This document shows positions 20-14,825 of a stretch of 28,544 nt of DNA, one piece after another. A program made the position numbers and the translations under genes. The stretch covers positions 1-28,544 of the forward strand of contig DATMYJ010000225.1 in NCBI GenBank assembly GCA_035561015.1, in the 5' to 3' direction. The notes under the pieces are model-generated. The model saw only the letters and a list, made by a program, of their open reading frames with translations, made no database searches and was not told the DNA's origin. This stretch comes from Desulfitobacteriaceae bacterium (GTDB lineage Bacteria > Bacillota > Desulfitobacteriia > Desulfitobacteriales > Desulfitobacteriaceae). Position 1 is the first letter of the stretch; the number at the start of each line of letters is the position of its first letter.

Positions 20-48
20 AGTTTAAACGATTATTAATGCCTTGTCAA
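20..48 (-). promoter_or_regulatory. sigmaA-type promoter reading out of the window (left end)
   Basis: Minus strand TTGACA (48-43), 17-nt spacer, TAAACT (25-20), directly after the deaminase stop. Confidence 0.7.
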
Positions 49-62
49 GTTTTGTTCTTATC

Positions 63-1397
63 TCAGTTATTGGAATACTCGACTTTAACCGGTGTCTGAC
101 TGCTCAGCTCAGCAGCTATACTTTTAGCTCTGGTCTCGACCTCATAACAGATCTTCTGCTCATCCAAGGTAAGAAGATTTCTTTCTTCCATAATAATTTT
201 GCCATTGACAATTACAGTCCGGACATCGCCGGCATGAGCTGAGTAAACTAAATGACCAGGGATAGAAAAACGGGGATAAAAATGCGGCTGATCCAGATTG
301 ATACTGATCAAATCGGCCTTATAACCCGGAAGAAGCTGGCCGACCTTATCCAATCCCAATACTTTAGCTCCGCCGGCTGTGGCCATTTCCAAAACCTGAT
401 AAGCCGGAAGTGCTGTACTCTCAACCTGCAGCTTTTGCAGCAGCGAGGCAGTACGCATTTCCCCGAACATATCCATATTATTATTGCTGGAAACACCGTC
501 AGTACCCAAACCGACTGTAACTCCCTGAGCTAATAAAGCCGAAACCGGGGCTATCCCACAATTCAGCTTCATGTTACTTTCCGGATTGTGACTTACACAA
601 ACATTTTTGCGGGCCATTATTTCCATGTCTTCCGGAGTTAAATGAACACAATGGGCTGCTGCTACATGTCTGTCAAAAAGCCCCAGACTATCCAGCCACT
701 GAACAGGTGTCAAACCCAACTTTTGCTGGATATTATTCACTTCATCTCTGGTTTCGGCCACATGAATATTAATACCCACGCCATAACGATCGGCCTCCGC
801 TTTCACCTGTTGCAGAAACTCTCCGGAACAGGTATAGGGGGCATGGGGCCCAAACATCACCGTGATCCTCTTGTCTCCAAGCTGATGATAGTTCTTAATC
901 AGTTCAATATTCTCCTGGAGGGCTTTCTGGCCATTAGGAGCATTGCCGATCATCCCCCGCGCCAGGACTGCCCTGGTCCCAGCTCCCAGCACAGCCTCGG
1001 CAACCTGCTCCATAAACATGTACATATCCAGCATTGCCGTCGTTCCTGATCGAATCATTTCGCAAAGGCCCAGAGCTGTTCCCCAGTAAATATCCTGAGC
1101 AGACATTTTATTTTCAAATGGCCAGATCTTTGTCTCCAACCAGGGCATCAAGGGCAGGTCATCAGCATAACTCCGCAGTAAAGTCATAGCAGCATGGGTA
1201 TGGGAGTTAATAAGACCCGGTAAAAAAACATCATTTGGGTAAGCCAAAATCCGGTCAGGAACAAATCCAGCCGGAGCAGAACCTCTCTCGCCAATTGTAA
1301 GAATATTTTCGCCGTCCAGGGCAATTTCACCTTCAGGGTAAAAATCATCAGGTCCGGTCATAGGTAAGACCATAGCCCTTATCAATATTTTTGCCAT
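63..1397 (-). CDS. mtaD: Amidohydrolase, 5'-methylthioadenosine/S-adenosylhomocysteine/5'-deoxyadenosine deaminase family
   Basis: Metal-binding HxH (NSHTHAAM), GPHAPY, HVAET and GTDG motifs; next to mtnA and the phosphorylase. Start moved to ATG 1397 (AAGGAGGT upstream, long 14-nt spacer); the ORF track uses GTG 1427. Confidence 0.85.
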   Translation of the reverse strand: MAKILIRAMVLPMTGPDDFYPEGEIALDGENILTIGERGSAPAGFVPDRILAYPNDVFLPGLINSHTHAAMTLLRSYADDLPLMPWLETKIWPFENKMSAQDIYWGTALGLCEMIRSGTTAMLDMYMFMEQVAEAVLGAGTRAVLARGMIGNAPNGQKALQENIELIKNYHQLGDKRITVMFGPHAPYTCSGEFLQQVKAEADRYGVGINIHVAETRDEVNNIQQKLGLTPVQWLDSLGLFDRHVAAAHCVHLTPEDMEIMARKNVCVSHNPESNMKLNCGIAPVSALLAQGVTVGLGTDGVSSNNNMDMFGEMRTASLLQKLQVESTALPAYQVLEMATAGGAKVLGLDKVGQLLPGYKADLISINLDQPHFYPRFSIPGHLVYSAHAGDVRTVIVNGKIIMEERNLLTLDEQKICYEVETRAKSIAAELSSQTPVKVEYSNN

Positions 1398-1407
1398 ATC
1401 TGAAGTT

Positions 1408-2064
1408 TCAGACCTCCTTCCCAGCACTGCCTTGTCCGTAGTTTTCCAAATATCCCTTTCTCATCTGTTCCATATCTTCGCTGCTTAAAGATACCGGGGT
1501 TCCCAGCATACGAGAAAAGGCGTGGATCTGAGCGGTTTTTTCTGTTATCTGACAGACCTTTAAGGCTTCCGCCAAGCCCTGCCCCACTCCCACTACACCA
1601 TGATTAGCCAAAAGCACGGCATTTTTTGCAGCCAAAGCAAGAGCAACGGCTTCAGCCAATTCCTGTGTCCCTGTCAAATGATAAGGCGCTACTTCCACTG
1701 CTCCGCCAATAATTTGAACCATATCCTCAACTATACCGGGAATGGCTAACCGGGCCACAGCATGGGCGCTGGCATAAACTGAATGGGTATGTATGATAGC
1801 TGCAATATCCGGACGCCGGGAATAGGTATGTAAGTGCATCAGAAATTCCGTTGAGGGCTTACGGAAACCTTTCATAATCTGACCTTGGCTGTTGATCAGC
1901 ACCAGATCTTTTGTTTTCAGGGAAGAATAATCAATGCCGCTGGGTGTGATCCAGAATCCGGAGCGCCCGGCATCCCAAGCTGAGATATTTCCCAAGGTCC
2001 CCACAACCAAACCGCTGGCCGCCAGATTTTGGCCAATATTGATTATTTCTCTCTTCAATCTCAT
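1408..2064 (-). CDS. Class II aldolase (FucA-like; candidate methylthio-/5-deoxy-ribulose-1-phosphate aldolase)
   Basis: GNIS, ITPSG, PSTE (catalytic Glu), HTH and NHG Zn ligands; ATGA overlap with the mtnA stop. Confidence 0.85.
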   Translation of the reverse strand: MRLKREIINIGQNLAASGLVVGTLGNISAWDAGRSGFWITPSGIDYSSLKTKDLVLINSQGQIMKGFRKPSTEFLMHLHTYSRRPDIAAIIHTHSVYASAHAVARLAIPGIVEDMVQIIGGAVEVAPYHLTGTQELAEAVALALAAKNAVLLANHGVVGVGQGLAEALKVCQITEKTAQIHAFSRMLGTPVSLSSEDMEQMRKGYLENYGQGSAGKEV

Positions 2065-3104
2065 AATCTGACCAGCATTTTAAGCAGATTCACAGCATAA
2101 GGCTGGCCAATAATCCCATTTTCCGTAATAATTCCGGTAATATATTTGGCTGGTGTGACGTCAAAAGCCGGATTATAAACATCAACTTCGGAGGGAGCAA
2201 TCTGGACTCCGCCTATTTCCCGTATTTCCCTGGCAGGACGCTGTTCAATAGGGATCTCCAGGCCGCTGCGCATCTTTAAATCTATGGTGGAGGTTGGAGC
2301 CGCAACATAGAAGGGAATTCCGTGAGCCTGGGCCAAAACCGCCAAAGAGTATGTACCGATCTTATTGGCAGTATCCCCGTTAGCAGCTATACGGTCTGCC
2401 CCTACTATTACCAGGTCAATTTTATCCAAGTGCATTAACCAGCCGGCCATATTATCGGCAATTAAAGTCACAGGGATACCATCCTGCAAAAGTTCCCAGG
2501 AAGTTAGGCGGGCACCTTGCAAAAGCGGCCGGGTCTCATCAGCATAAACATGAATCGTTTTTCCGGCAGTAAAGGCCGTACGGATGACTCCCAGAGCTGT
2601 GCCATACTCTACAGTAGCCAATGCACCGGCGTTACAATGGGTCAGAATGCTTGCTTTATCCGGAACAACCGTATTGCCGTATTCTCCGATAAGCCTGTTC
2701 ATCCTGCGGTCATCCTCAGCAATAGAATTGGCTTCATCGACAAGAGCCACACAGATCAGAGACAGATCTTCCGCCTCACGCATTTCCCGCAAACGATCTT
2801 CCATACGCCGCAAGGCCCAGAAAAGATTAACGGCCGTGGGGCGTGTTGCTTCTAAGCGGGCTTGAACATTTTCCAGATGGGTAAAGAAGTCTTCCTGGGA
2901 GCCTTGAAATTCCAAAGCTCCCAGAGCATAGCCGTAAGCAGCAACAGCTCCTATAGCCGGCGCCCCTCTTACCACCATATTCTCAATCAATTCCGCAACT
3001 TCCAGATAAGACTTTACTTCGCAGTATACTTCTTCTAAAGGTAATTTAGTCTGATCTAAAACCCGCAAAGAACGTCCTAACCATTCAATTGTCTTCACAT
3101 CCAA
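2061..3104 (-). CDS. mtnA: S-methyl-5-thioribose-1-phosphate isomerase
   Basis: VRGAPAIG, RPTAVNL, THCNAG, ETRPLLQGARLT and GADRIAANGDTANKIG motifs; TTG start after AAAGGCGG. Confidence 0.95.
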   Translation of the reverse strand: MDVKTIEWLGRSLRVLDQTKLPLEEVYCEVKSYLEVAELIENMVVRGAPAIGAVAAYGYALGALEFQGSQEDFFTHLENVQARLEATRPTAVNLFWALRRMEDRLREMREAEDLSLICVALVDEANSIAEDDRRMNRLIGEYGNTVVPDKASILTHCNAGALATVEYGTALGVIRTAFTAGKTIHVYADETRPLLQGARLTSWELLQDGIPVTLIADNMAGWLMHLDKIDLVIVGADRIAANGDTANKIGTYSLAVLAQAHGIPFYVAAPTSTIDLKMRSGLEIPIEQRPAREIREIGGVQIAPSEVDVYNPAFDVTPAKYITGIITENGIIGQPYAVNLLKMLVRL

Positions 3105-3113
3105 ACCGCCTTT

Positions 3114-3899
3114 CTAAAACTTACCAAGCTCTACATTGGCTAAGGGGCATGTACAATTCTGTTCTGGTGTCAACATCCTCATCGTCTTCTCGATCAGCTC
3201 AAAAACTGATTGCTCGCTTTGCCGGATTCTTTCCACTACCTCAGCATGGGTCAGTCGGCAAGAGGCAATGCCCGCTGCCTCATTGGTAACTATGCCAATA
3301 GCAGCATAACAGATACCAAGTTCCCTAGCCAAAACAACTTCCGGCACGCTTGTCATGCCAACCACTTCCCCGCCCAGTTTCTGAAACATTCTGATTTCCG
3401 CCGGAGTCTCAAAACGCGGTCCCTCAGTACAGACATATGTCGCTCCGTTCTTGAGGTTCAGGTCAAGCTCCCGGCCTGCCTGCAGGATTACCTGCCGCAA
3501 CTGACTGCAATAGGGATCAGTCAAATCCACATGCAGAACACCCTGATCCCCACCCTCATAAAAAGTCGAGGGTCTGCTTTTGGTGAAATCAAGAAATTGA
3601 TCAATCAAAACCAGATCTTGCAACTTAAAATTCAGGGATAAAGATCCCATGGCCGCTGTGGCCAGGATCTTCCTGACGCCCAGTTCTCTTAATGCCCAAA
3701 GATTGGCCCTGTAGTTGATCAGATGGGGCGGGAAAACATGATTATAGCCATGACGGTTCATAAATACAACATCCAGTGGGCCCAGATAACCCTTCACAAC
3801 CTGAGCACTGCCATAAGGAGTTTCCAGAGTTATCATCTGCTTGTCAGAAAAAGGCAGCGATTCTAAACCCGTCCCCCCGATAAGTGCAAAATCGCTCAA
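3114..3899 (-). CDS. mtnP: MTAP/PNP-family nucleoside phosphorylase, predicted 6-oxopurine (methylthioinosine) type
   Basis: IGGTG, RHG..H..PPH..NYRAN, EGPRFETPAE, VVGMT and C-terminal VTNEAAG; TTG start overlaps the ftsY TGA, RBS GAGGAGG. Confidence 0.88.
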   Translation of the reverse strand: MSDFALIGGTGLESLPFSDKQMITLETPYGSAQVVKGYLGPLDVVFMNRHGYNHVFPPHLINYRANLWALRELGVRKILATAAMGSLSLNFKLQDLVLIDQFLDFTKSRPSTFYEGGDQGVLHVDLTDPYCSQLRQVILQAGRELDLNLKNGATYVCTEGPRFETPAEIRMFQKLGGEVVGMTSVPEVVLARELGICYAAIGIVTNEAAGIASCRLTHAEVVERIRQSEQSVFELIEKTMRMLTPEQNCTCPLANVELGKF

Positions 3900-4828
3900 G
3901 TCGTTCCCTCCTCAGGGCGATTAAAAAGAGCTGCGGCAAAATCCCGGGGTACAAAAGGTCGTAAATCATCCATACCTTCGCCGATGCCAATCCATTTGAC
4001 CGGGATTTTGGTTTCCCCTTGTATTCCCAGCACTACACCCCCTTTGGCAGTGCCGTCAAGTTTAGTTAAAACTATCCCGGTAACGTCGGCAACTTCTTTA
4101 AAGAGCTTAGCCTGCTGTAAGGCATTTTGGCCGGTAGTAGCATCTAAAACCAGCAGGACTTCGTGGGGCGCTCCCGGAATTTCTTTTTCAATAACTCTTC
4201 TCACCTTACGCAATTCTTCCATCAGATTTACTTTATTGTGCAGGCGCCCTGCCGTATCGATCAGAACAACATCAATTCCGCGAGATCTGGCAGCATTGAC
4301 AGCATCATAGGCAACAGCAGCAGGATCGGCCCCTTCTTTTTGTTTGATTACCTCAGCACCGGCCCGCTGCCCCCAGATTTCCAGCTGATCAATAGCCGCA
4401 GCCCGAAATGTGTCAGCAGCAGCCAAAATAACCCGTTTACCGTCCTGTTTTAGTCTGCCGGCTAATTTCCCTATTGTTGTGGTTTTACCAACACCATTGA
4501 CCCCAACCACCAGAAAAACACTGGGGCCGGCAGACGAGAATGACAACGGTTTTTCTTCCCCCAACAAGGAGATTATTTTTTCCATAAGTATCCCGGTTAA
4601 CTGGTCGGCCTCAGATATTTTCCGGACTTTAACTTCCTGACGCAGCTGGTCAACCAACTCCATAGAGGTGTTAAAACCTACATCAGCACCGATTAAAACT
4701 TCCTCCAACTGCTCATATAATTCTTCGTCTATTTTTCTGCGCCCAGTCAGCAGTTCTTCGACACGTTCCACCAGATTCTGGCGAGTCTTGCTTAAACCCG
4801 CTTTAAGTTGCGAAAAAAAGCCTGCCAC
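3896..4828 (-). CDS. ftsY: Signal recognition particle receptor FtsY (short NG type)
   Basis: GVNGVGKTTTIGK, DTFRAAA, DTAGR and TKLDGTAKGG motifs; GTG start with AGGAG; follows smc. Confidence 0.97.
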   Translation of the reverse strand: MAGFFSQLKAGLSKTRQNLVERVEELLTGRRKIDEELYEQLEEVLIGADVGFNTSMELVDQLRQEVKVRKISEADQLTGILMEKIISLLGEEKPLSFSSAGPSVFLVVGVNGVGKTTTIGKLAGRLKQDGKRVILAAADTFRAAAIDQLEIWGQRAGAEVIKQKEGADPAAVAYDAVNAARSRGIDVVLIDTAGRLHNKVNLMEELRKVRRVIEKEIPGAPHEVLLVLDATTGQNALQQAKLFKEVADVTGIVLTKLDGTAKGGVVLGIQGETKIPVKWIGIGEGMDDLRPFVPRDFAAALFNRPEEGTT

Positions 4829-12747: not shown

Positions 12748-13686
12748 TTAACTACTCTCCTTTAAATATGCAAGTGACTTTTCCAGAGAGGCAAAATCCC
12801 CAACCTGCAGGATTGCAGCCTCCGGAACTATTTTCTTGATCAATCCGCTTAAAGCCTTCCCCGGACCACATTCCACAAAAATATCAACACCCTGGGCTGC
12901 CAAATAACGAATCGATTGTTCCCAGAGCACAGCTCCGCTTACCTGCTGCACCAAAGATTCAATGGCCCTTTCCGGATCCAGGACTTCCCGAGCATCGATA
13001 TTAGCTATCACCGGACAAGATGGCTTCTGCCAAGCTGCTTCATGCAAAACCTTACTCAGCTCCTGGGCAGCACTCCTCATCAGGACAGAGTGAAAAGGTC
13101 CGCTGACAGATAAAGCCACAGCACGCTTAGCACCCAGCTTTTTGGCCTCCTCCATGGCTTTGGCCACAGCCTCTGTCTGGCCGGAAATAACGATTTGACC
13201 AGGACAGTTATAATTTGCCGGCTCTACTGCACCGCTCGCCGCAGCCCGGCCGCAGGCTTCTTCAACCTTGACTGCTTCCAAACCCAGGATTGCGGCCATG
13301 CTTCCCTGACCGACCGGAACAGCCACCTGCATTAGTTCCCCCCGACGGCGTACCACCCTCAGGGCATCCTCAAGTCCAAGACTTCCTGCCGCAACATGGG
13401 CCGAATACTCTCCCAAGCTATGACCGGCATGGTAATCGGCTTTAATACCGGCTGCCTGCAGCTGACACCAGGCAGCAATACTCACCAGCAAGATTGCCGG
13501 CTGAGTATTGGCTGTAAGCTGCAGCTCTTCCTCGGGGCCATATTCTATAACCTTTAAAAAATCTTCTCCCAGAACTTTCCGCCCTGCAGCATAAACATTC
13601 TGTCCGCAATCTGTTGTGAAAAGCTCCTTGCCCATTCCCACATACTGGGATCCCTGACCAGGGAATACAAACGCTAATTTGCCCAT
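12748..13686 (-). CDS. fabD: Malonyl-CoA:ACP transacylase
   Basis: FPGQGSQ, TQPA, GHSLGE, ANYNCPGQ and SGPFHS motifs. Confidence 0.97.
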   Translation of the reverse strand: MGKLAFVFPGQGSQYVGMGKELFTTDCGQNVYAAGRKVLGEDFLKVIEYGPEEELQLTANTQPAILLVSIAAWCQLQAAGIKADYHAGHSLGEYSAHVAAGSLGLEDALRVVRRRGELMQVAVPVGQGSMAAILGLEAVKVEEACGRAAASGAVEPANYNCPGQIVISGQTEAVAKAMEEAKKLGAKRAVALSVSGPFHSVLMRSAAQELSKVLHEAAWQKPSCPVIANIDAREVLDPERAIESLVQQVSGAVLWEQSIRYLAAQGVDIFVECGPGKALSGLIKKIVPEAAILQVGDFASLEKSLAYLKESS

Positions 13687-13871
13687 TCAGTAATTCCTCA
13701 CTTTCTAAGGCTTGATTATCATTCTCCGGTTGAGCCGGTTTAATCTGTCCTAAAAATACCATTACGGCAGATATAGTGTTCGTTCATTAATTGCCATTAT
13801 TTTTTTTTGCTAACGCATCAGCAACTATTCAGGTCTGTTTCTCACTACAAAAGCTCTTAAAGGAACGGTGA

Positions 13872-14825
13872 TCAGCATTGATCCTGAAAATAAGCGGATA
13901 GCCTGATCCATTCCAATTCAGCCGTTTCCATTACATTCCGCAAAATATCGGCAGCAGGTTCGATGCGTTTAACAGCACCGGCAATCTGACCTGCCATAAC
14001 AGAGCCATTGGTAATGTCACCTTCCACCATAGCCAACTGTAATCTGCCGACACCCATTTTTTCCAATTCAGCTGCCCCTGCCCCTTCACGTTCACAACGG
14101 GAAAATTCCCGTATAAAACGATTATCCAGACAGCGCACCGGGTGTCCTGTGGTATAACCGGTGACCACCGTATCACGATCTTTAGCCTTCAGAATGGCTT
14201 CTTTAACCACCAGGGGAATTTTACACTCGGCGGCACACATGAAACGTGTTCCCATCTGGACACCTGTGGCTCCCAGGGAAAGAGCCGCAATCAGACCACG
14301 CCCGTCAAAAATTCCTCCGGCAGCAATCACTGGTATTTTAACAGCATCAACAACCTGGGGTACCAAAGGAAAGGTGCTGATTTCGCCTACATGCCCTCCT
14401 GATTCCATCCCCTCGGCTATCAGGGCATCTACCCCGGCTTTCTCCAAACGCTTGGCCAACGCTACCGAGGCTACAACAGGAATTACTTTCGTGCCGACAT
14501 CTTTTAACCTTGGCACATATTTACCCGGGTTGCCGGCACCTGTTGTAATTACCGGCACCTTTTCTCTGATGATTATGCTCATGATTTCCTCGAGATAAGG
14601 CGACAATAACATAATATTGACCCCGAAAGGTTTGCGGGTTACTTCTTTCAGCTTGTAAATTTCGTTCTCCAACCAATCTGGCGGTGCCTGGCCGGCAGCG
14701 ATAATTCCCAACCCTCCGCCTTCAGATACTGCTGCTGCCAATTCACCGGTTGCTACCCAGGCCATTCCACCTTGAAAAATTGGATATTCAATCCCTAAGA
14801 GATCGCAAATTTCCGTTTTAATCAT
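13872..14825 (-). CDS. fabK: Enoyl-ACP reductase II (FMN)
   Basis: IFQGGMAWVA, GVNIMLLSP, TGAGNPG, EGMESGGHVG, TGHPVR and MAGQIAG; ATG 14825 overlaps the fabH TGA; no C-terminal Cys cluster. Confidence 0.92.
   Translation of the reverse strand: MIKTEICDLLGIEYPIFQGGMAWVATGELAAAVSEGGGLGIIAAGQAPPDWLENEIYKLKEVTRKPFGVNIMLLSPYLEEIMSIIIREKVPVITTGAGNPGKYVPRLKDVGTKVIPVVASVALAKRLEKAGVDALIAEGMESGGHVGEISTFPLVPQVVDAVKIPVIAAGGIFDGRGLIAALSLGATGVQMGTRFMCAAECKIPLVVKEAILKAKDRDTVVTGYTTGHPVRCLDNRFIREFSRCEREGAGAAELEKMGVGRLQLAMVEGDITNGSVMAGQIAGAVKRIEPAADILRNVMETAELEWIRLSAYFQDQC

Follow-up and report, generated by a model that had tools for sequence, protein, structure and literature searches.

A four-gene cluster of anaerobic Bacillota predicted to encode a deaminate-first dihydroxyacetone phosphate shunt for by-products of S-adenosylmethionine

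The stretch of DNA analyzed here, referred to as the window, comprises 28,544 nucleotides (contig C225; DATMYJ010000225.1) of a metagenome-assembled genome (MAG) of a strictly anaerobic Desulfitobacteriaceae bacterium (GCA_035561015.1), an assembly of 1.82 Mb in 341 contigs with an estimated completeness of 91%. In a scan with one genome for each species, the closest relatives were uncultured Desulfitobacteriaceae, followed by Desulfosporosinus and Desulfitobacterium. Directly after smc-ftsY, the window carries four co-directional and coupled genes on the minus strand, encoding a nucleoside phosphorylase, MtnA, a class II aldolase, and a deaminase. As judged from their sequences, these genes likely form a deaminate-first dihydroxyacetone phosphate (DHAP) shunt, which would clear the adenosine-type by-products of S-adenosylmethionine (SAM) chemistry and leave S-inosylhomocysteine (SIH) to a separately encoded hydrolase with an HxExK motif. 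The cluster and the gene that precedes it are as follows:

63..1397, minus strand: MtaD/DadD-type amidohydrolase, a predicted adenine-ring deaminase of 5'-substituted adenosines, 444 amino acids (Amidohydro_1, PF01979, 265 bits)
1408..2064, minus strand: class II (metal-dependent) aldolase of the FucA/DrdA/Ald2 type, 218 amino acids (Aldolase_II, PF00596, 165 bits)
2061..3098, minus strand: MtnA, of the IF-2B/MtnA family (TIGR00512, 453 bits, cut-off 279)
3114..3899, minus strand: nucleoside phosphorylase of the methylthioadenosine phosphorylase (MTAP) family with a 6-oxopurine (hypoxanthine) signature, 261 amino acids (PNP_UDP_1, MTAP/methylthioinosine phosphorylase (MTIP) type)
3896..4828, minus strand: ftsY, the signal recognition particle receptor (TIGR00064, 365 bits, cut-off 261)

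The longest open reading frames of the four genes, all on the minus strand, span 3899-3114, 3104-2061, 2064-1408, and 1427-63. The TTG start of the phosphorylase gene overlaps the TGA stop of ftsY by 4 nucleotides (TTGA) and has GGAGG upstream, and the cluster is therefore probably co-transcribed with smc-ftsY. The mtnA gene most likely starts at the GTG at 3098, 15 nucleotides past the phosphorylase stop, and the ATG of the aldolase gene overlaps the mtnA stop (ATGA). For the deaminase, the most likely start is the ATG at 1397, which lies 10 nucleotides past the aldolase stop and is preceded by GGAAGGAGG; with this start the protein has 444 amino acids, instead of the 454 given by the longest reading frame. 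The reading frames, families, and overlaps thus bear out the four tightly linked genes described in the first-pass annotation, with the starts of mtnA and the deaminase gene slightly corrected. That annotation had also listed mtnB, mtnW, mtnX, mtnD, and mtnK as missing from the cluster, and indeed none of them was found in the window. No riboswitch was found, and scans for terminators and promoters showed nothing convincing inside the cluster.

The base preference of the phosphorylase was assessed with family models and residue comparisons. The protein passes the model for S-methyl-5'-thioinosine phosphorylase (MTIP, EC 2.4.2.44; NF006599) with 247.1 bits against a cut-off of 223, and it marginally passes the MTAP model TIGR01694, with 276 bits against 274.85. 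Its top solved relatives overall are archaeal MTAPs, together with the MTIP of Pseudomonas aeruginosa (3OZB). Structural work on purine nucleoside phosphorylases (PNPs) and MTAPs indicates that an Asn and a Glu in the base pocket pick 6-oxopurines and that an Asp-x-Asp picks adenine. In the alignment, the base loop reads VTNEAAG in the phosphorylase, VVNPAAG in 3OZB, and VTDYD in archaeal MTAPs, and the second base segment reads GPRFET, GPRLET, and GPRFST, respectively; the Asp-x-Asp and Ser of MTAPs are thus not present, and Asn and Glu stand in their places. Moreover, VTNEAAGIASCRLTHAEV of the phosphorylase aligns without gaps with VTNMAAGILSQRLSHAEV of a PNP-I that passes TIGR01700 ('inosine and guanosine-specific'). 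The Glu, the Asn, and an L[ST]HxEV segment are invariant across 80 of 80 phosphorylase orthologues. A preference for 6-oxopurine bases is thus well supported by these residues, and the enzyme is predicted to convert 5'-deoxyinosine or 5'-methylthioinosine (MTI) plus phosphate to hypoxanthine and 5-deoxy- or 5-methylthio-ribose-1-phosphate. The genome holds a second, divergent MTAP-like phosphorylase of 294 amino acids (contig C131, L013:8135-9019), which is 28% identical to the clustered one, adjoins a family 4 glycosyltransferase, and is also of the Asn/Glu type (VVNYAEG, HFES).

The product of mtnA, of which no other copy was found in the genome and which lies between the phosphorylase and aldolase genes, passes NF004326 (475 bits, cut-off 271) as well as TIGR00512, and it fails the ribose-1,5-bisphosphate isomerase model (207 bits, cut-off 314). 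In full-length alignment, the best solved relatives of the aldolase are FucA of Streptococcus pneumoniae (4C24) and DrdA of Bacillus thuringiensis (6BTD), and the catalytic Glu73 and the metal-binding His92, His94, and His155 are kept. The enzyme is predicted to split 5-deoxy- or 5-methylthio-ribulose-1-phosphate into DHAP and acetaldehyde or 2-(methylthio)acetaldehyde. Three other identities were considered and rejected. MtnB gave 74 bits in TIGR03328 (cut-off 137), with only the N-terminal half matched and a contrary gene context; FucA gave 113 bits in TIGR01086 (cut-off 400) and 181 bits in NF005302 (cut-off 264), and the neighbors of the gene are mtnA and the deaminase gene, not fucose genes; AraD failed its curated model, again with a contrary context. 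A second protein from the family of class II aldolases, 33% identical to the clustered one, is encoded on contig C188 (L010:21-3340) after an FGGY kinase and a D-2-hydroxyacid dehydrogenase. The best model for this kinase is autoinducer-2 kinase, below its cut-off, and these aldolase and kinase genes look like a separate sugar-phosphate route.

The closest solved relative of the deaminase is 4F0R/4F0S, deposited as a 5'-methylthioadenosine (MTA)/S-adenosylhomocysteine (SAH) deaminase, followed by several uninformatively named chains, including 4GBD, which we take to be PA3170 of P. aeruginosa, and by Tm0936 of Thermotoga (1P1M/2PLM). Compared with Tm0936, the deaminase keeps H55, H57, W75, E84, R136, H173, H200, E203, H228, and D279, a set that includes the metal-binding residues, the Glu, His, and Asp of catalysis, and the ribose-binding Glu; R148 is replaced by Ala.

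The survey of cluster conservation that the first-pass annotation had proposed showed that the arrangement is kept across many anaerobic Bacillota. The scan of one genome per species yielded at least 550 phosphorylase relatives, and gene order was counted in the best 80 loci. A deaminase gene lies within 6.5 kb downstream of the phosphorylase gene in 68 of these 80 loci. The exact order phosphorylase-MtnA-aldolase-deaminase is found in 26, and five more have the same order with a gene of the adenosylhomocysteinase (AdoHcyase) family inserted, giving 31 loci with the aldolase gene between mtnA and the deaminase gene; an AdoHcyase-family hydrolase stands within the cluster in 10 loci in all. The taxa with such loci include Desulfitobacteriaceae, Peptococcaceae, Syntrophomonadaceae, Syntrophaceticus, Desulfovirgula, Carboxydothermus, and Negativicutes, and Hadarchaeota have loci with the phosphorylase only or with the phosphorylase and MtnA. 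In five Desulfosporosinus genomes (G013-G017; L116-L120), the aldolase gene is not in the ftsY-linked cluster; an orthologue of it (47-50% identity) lies immediately upstream of an AdoHcyase-family (HxExK) gene, on the same strand. This arrangement is a second, independent link of the aldolase to the metabolism of SAM by-products.

Most of the 80 loci lie in the ftsY-ffh interval, and the junction between ftsY and the phosphorylase gene is likewise kept in most. All large genes of the window are on the minus strand, in the order prkC, rsgA, recG, plsX, fab genes, rnc, smc, ftsY, which is a conserved Firmicute housekeeping arrangement, and the content outside the cluster is housekeeping (smc, rnc, the fab operon, plsX, recG, prkC, and others). 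At the other side of the cluster, the contig ends 62 nucleotides beyond the deaminase stop. A promoter-like TTGACA-17-TAAACT at window positions 20-48 (minus strand), just downstream of this stop, presumably serves the following gene (ylxM/ffh in relatives).

5'-Deoxyadenosine, MTA, and SAH act as inhibitors of radical-SAM enzymes, polyamine synthases, and methyltransferases, and anaerobes rich in radical-SAM enzymes must clear these by-products; the usual bacterial solution is the Pfs nucleosidase. We analyzed the wider metabolism of these compounds in 20 cluster-bearing relatives, complete genomes among them, with the MAG itself added in some counts (n = 21). Neither Pfs nor MtnB was found above its cut-off in any of the 20 relatives, and the acireductone dioxygenase (ARD) of methionine salvage was represented by one weak match, a short ARD-like cupin in a single relative. 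Spermidine synthase is encoded in 20 of 20, indicating that MTA is made, and a hypoxanthine-guanine phosphoribosyltransferase (HGPRT), which could recapture hypoxanthine, is encoded in 19 of 20. Phosphopentomutase (DeoB) is encoded by 19 of the 21 genomes; the cluster is therefore not needed for handling ribose-1-phosphate from inosine, and this role was rejected. A separate true PNP-I stands beside phosphopentomutase in 11 of 21, and in the genome under study DeoD is beside DeoB; ordinary inosine is handled by these separate DeoD or PNP-I enzymes with DeoB. No Pfs, MtnK, ARD, or nitrogenase-like methylthio-alkane reductase (mar-type) genes were found in the MAG, which is incomplete. It also yielded neither spermidine synthase nor HGPRT, both of which its relatives have, and its absences are therefore weak evidence; the completeness estimate of 91% probably overstates the assembled fraction.

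The only AdoHcyase homologue in the genome (contig C33, L012:194-1441), named adenosylhomocysteinase by NCBIfam, has the sequence HLEAK at the HxExK motif, and its best solved matches include 7R3A, deposited as 'S-inosyl-L-homocysteine hydrolase'. Enzymes with HxExK favor SIH, and those with HxTxE/Q favor SAH (Koeppl et al. 2024, PMC10978960). The HxExK motif was found in 18 of 19 AdoHcyase homologues of cluster-bearing genomes. An exception is one locus of the Peptococcaceae (L081:9686-10918 and 13279-14034), with an HxTxE-type (SAH-type) hydrolase inside the cluster and a second phosphorylase paralogue downstream. The HxExK hydrolase, the lack of Pfs, MtnB, and ARD in the relatives, and the Desulfosporosinus aldolase gene beside the hydrolase gene suggest that the clustered deaminase probably serves SAH, MTA, and 5'-deoxyadenosine alike.

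Collectively, the phosphorylase signature and its MTIP score, the conserved deaminase residues, the MtnA equivalog, the aldolase residues, and the conserved arrangement support, at the level of sequence, the inosine-route DHAP shunt that had been proposed for this locus. What the sequences show is the order and coupling of the genes, the families of their products, the diagnostic residues, and the patterns of conservation and co-occurrence; from these we infer the substrates and products of each step, that the deaminase is shared, and what becomes of the aldehydes. The operon would be expressed constitutively, as a housekeeping unit. The amidohydrolase would deaminate 5'-deoxyadenosine to 5'-deoxyinosine and MTA to MTI, and probably also SAH to SIH. 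The 6-oxopurine-type phosphorylase would then free hypoxanthine and 5-deoxy- or 5-methylthio-ribose-1-phosphate, MtnA would turn these ribose-1-phosphates into the corresponding ribulose-1-phosphates, and the class II aldolase would split the latter into DHAP and acetaldehyde or 2-(methylthio)acetaldehyde. SIH would be converted to inosine and homocysteine by the HxExK-type hydrolase encoded elsewhere, and the whole route would replace the Pfs nucleosidase in the Desulfitobacteriaceae lineage. The first-pass annotation had called the route self-contained. This description is too narrow, as the deaminase probably also feeds the SIH hydrolase; it is further qualified by two other proteins of the genome, another DadD-type deaminase and a RuBisCO-like protein, both described below. 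The search for classical methionine salvage suggested there found MtnB above its cut-off in none of the 20 relatives and no ARD in the genome itself, and the RuBisCO-like protein scored below the MtnW cut-offs. The possible release of methylthioethanol had been raised along with a search for mar genes; none of the mar type was found in the genome, and any methylthioethanol would thus not be recycled by the known route.

Several observations weigh against the shunt, and three other explanations were considered. The phosphorylase, MtnA, and deaminase genes stand without the aldolase gene in 28 of the 80 loci, mainly those of Desulfosporosinus and Dehalobacter, and the only aldolase homologues found in Dehalobacter and in two Peptococcaceae/Desulfitobacteriia genomes were distant ones (25-36% identity). 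In addition, the genome encodes a RuBisCO-like protein of 416 amino acids (contig C163, L011:8591-11825), a possible alternative outlet for methylthio- or 5-deoxy-ribulose-1-phosphate, whose gene follows a split transketolase, the N- and C-terminal halves of which are encoded separately. Among solved structures it matches best 3QFW (236 bits), which we take to be the DeepYkr-type protein of Rhodopseudomonas palustris; the RuBisCO-like protein is DeepYkr-like and does not reach the MtnW cut-offs. These findings could be accommodated if the deaminase, phosphorylase, and MtnA acted as proposed and the ribulose-1-phosphates were mainly used in biosynthesis and not cleaved to DHAP. Their fate would be either conversion by the DeepYkr-like protein, to xylulose-5-phosphate analogues or 1-deoxy-D-xylulose 5-phosphate, or a deoxy-ketofructose-phosphate pathway in the style of Methanocaldococcus jannaschii, an archaeal proposal summarized in PMC6079011 and PMC6302742, and the clustered aldolase would serve as a side outlet or use a different sugar phosphate. 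However, only 3 of the 20 relatives, all close ones, yielded the RuBisCO-like protein, the start of the aldolase gene overlaps the mtnA stop, and the aldolase is tied to the pathway in two independent arrangements. A mainly biosynthetic use is thus improbable. As for the aldolase itself, DrdA is 53% identical to the true FucA 4C24 (Beaudoin et al. 2018, PMC6079011), and sequence therefore cannot separate an enzyme for 5-deoxyribulose-1-phosphate from a fuculose aldolase; its function is assigned here from gene context.

The remaining points against the shunt concern the specificity of the deaminase and the phosphorylase. The clustered deaminase reaches no NCBIfam equivalog cut-off, scoring 504 bits in NF004701 (cut-off 609), 388 in NF005557 (cut-off 522), and 311 in NF012037 (cut-off 779), and is therefore assigned to the MtaD/DadD group and not to a named equivalog. 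A second MtaD/DadD-like deaminase (contig C75, L094:1810-3144), 37% identical to the clustered copy, does pass NF005557, '5'-deoxyadenosine deaminase', with 653 bits; paralogues of this type occur in 8 of the 20 cluster-bearing relatives, and the clustered deaminase occurs in all 20. At the 5'-group position in the C-terminal helix, the phosphorylase has a PNP-like His, invariant in the clade, where the MTIP of P. aeruginosa has the hydrophobic residue Met. In PNPs, this His of the loop contacts the 5'-OH. The 5'-group preference of the phosphorylase is therefore possibly broad, as it is reported to be in the M. jannaschii enzyme (PMC6302742). The full PNP-I-type loop, His included, would suit a general catabolism of purine nucleosides, in which adenosine is converted through inosine, ribose-1-phosphate, and ribulose-1-phosphate to DHAP and glycolaldehyde, with no dedicated route for SAM by-products. 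The deaminases of this family are promiscuous for the 5' group (PMC6302742), and the aldolase bears a weak likeness to the haloarchaeal ribulose-1-phosphate aldolase model (134 bits, cut-off 300), both in line with such a role. Nevertheless, MtnA passes its own equivalog and fails the ribose-bisphosphate isomerase model, DeoD or PNP-I beside phosphopentomutase is already at hand for inosine and ribose-1-phosphate, the cluster lies among housekeeping genes with neither transporter nor regulator, and it co-occurs with the loss of Pfs and with SIH-type hydrolases, all of which makes general nucleoside catabolism an unlikely function. A last explanation is that the phosphorylase is an ordinary adenine-type MTAP in a standard MtnP-MtnA-Ald2 shunt and that the deaminase is independent of it, acting on SAH only or on another substrate. 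The narrow pass in the MTAP equivalog and the archaeal MTAPs among the best overall PDB matches speak for it; the replacement of the MTAP Asp-x-Asp and Ser by Asn and Glu in all 80 orthologues, the pass in the MTIP model, and the deaminase gene neighboring the phosphorylase gene in most loci speak against it, and we consider this explanation very unlikely.

Every enzyme type in the proposed deaminate-first shunt is known, and it is the bacterial combination that was not found described in the literature searched. The DHAP shunt, or 5-deoxyribose salvage, is formed by MtnP-MtnA-Ald2 in Rhodospirillum rubrum and by DrdK-DrdI-DrdA in B. thuringiensis, and extraintestinal Escherichia coli has a version with Pfs and MtnK-MtnA-Ald2 (PMC6079011, PMC10986504). 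The present locus shares with it the isomerase and class II aldolase steps, the predicted end products, the clustering of three genes, and the independence from oxygen. The known entries are an adenine-type MTAP or a nucleosidase with a kinase, whereas here a deaminase and a hypoxanthine-type phosphorylase would take their place, hypoxanthine rather than adenine would be released, and the route would be tied to an SIH hydrolase, with Pfs not found. Since the phosphorylase does not have the MTAP Asp-x-Asp and Ser, and Pfs and MtnK were not found, the locus is not a plain member of the DHAP shunt. The network of M. jannaschii, with the deaminase DadD, the phosphorylase MtiP, the isomerase MJ0454, and an SIH hydrolase (PMC6302742, PMC10978960), resembles it in the deaminate-first logic, in a broad MTAP-family phosphorylase for 6-oxopurines, in an MtnA-type isomerase, and in an HxExK hydrolase. 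In that archaeon, however, the genes are described as dispersed and the enzymes as promiscuous, whereas here one bacterial operon includes the aldolase; the fate proposed there for 5-deoxyribulose-1-phosphate is as a precursor of aromatic amino acids, aldol cleavage having been only suggested by reviewers (PMC6302742). In P. aeruginosa, an MTA deaminase and an MTI phosphorylase (Guan et al. 2011, 2012, cited in PMC6302742) likewise convert MTA through MTI to hypoxanthine and 5-methylthioribose-1-phosphate, and the latter enzyme has the same Asn and Glu base-binding signature (3OZB). It differs from the present clade in having Met in place of the invariant His, and its route feeds classical methionine salvage, which was not found in the present lineage. 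Thermotoga maritima, with the MTA/SAH deaminase Tm0936 and an SAH hydrolase that prefers SIH, offers a bacterial conversion of SAH through SIH to inosine and homocysteine (PMC10978960), and the window deaminase aligns with Tm0936 with the catalytic residues kept; T. maritima differs in also encoding an MTA nucleosidase homologue (PMC10978960). No operon joining the T. maritima deaminase to MtnA and an aldolase was found described in the literature searched. Within the full texts searched, themselves an incomplete set, we found no description of a bacterial deaminase-phosphorylase-MtnA-aldolase operon, and no paper that combines MtaD with an aldolase and either MtnA or MtnP.

On a wider scale, we see about even chances that Pfs has been replaced by a single 'hypoxanthine-route' hub, to which one deaminase commits SAH, MTA, and 5'-deoxyadenosine, in a large group of Bacillota that are strict anaerobes and in some archaea. 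The bacterial members of this group would include Desulfitobacteriaceae, Syntrophomonadaceae, Thermacetogeniaceae, and Negativicutes. The phosphorylase, with an MTAP scaffold and a PNP-type base and 5' loop, the SIH hydrolase, MtnA, and the DrdA-like aldolase would return hypoxanthine, homocysteine, and DHAP, and the methylthio sulfur would be discarded; the irreversible deamination would pull the unfavorable equilibrium of the hydrolase and relieve the product inhibition of radical-SAM enzymes. Our results suggest that anaerobic Firmicutes of many kinds, among them organohalide respirers, sulfate reducers, and syntrophs, use an archaeal-style deaminate-first route together with the DHAP shunt in place of Pfs. 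If confirmed, this would close a gap in how the metabolism of these organisms is reconstructed and correct many names in databases ('chlorohydrolase', 'fuculose aldolase', and 'adenosylhomocysteinase' among them), and a natural enzyme set would become available for SAM-regeneration cascades through inosine derivatives.

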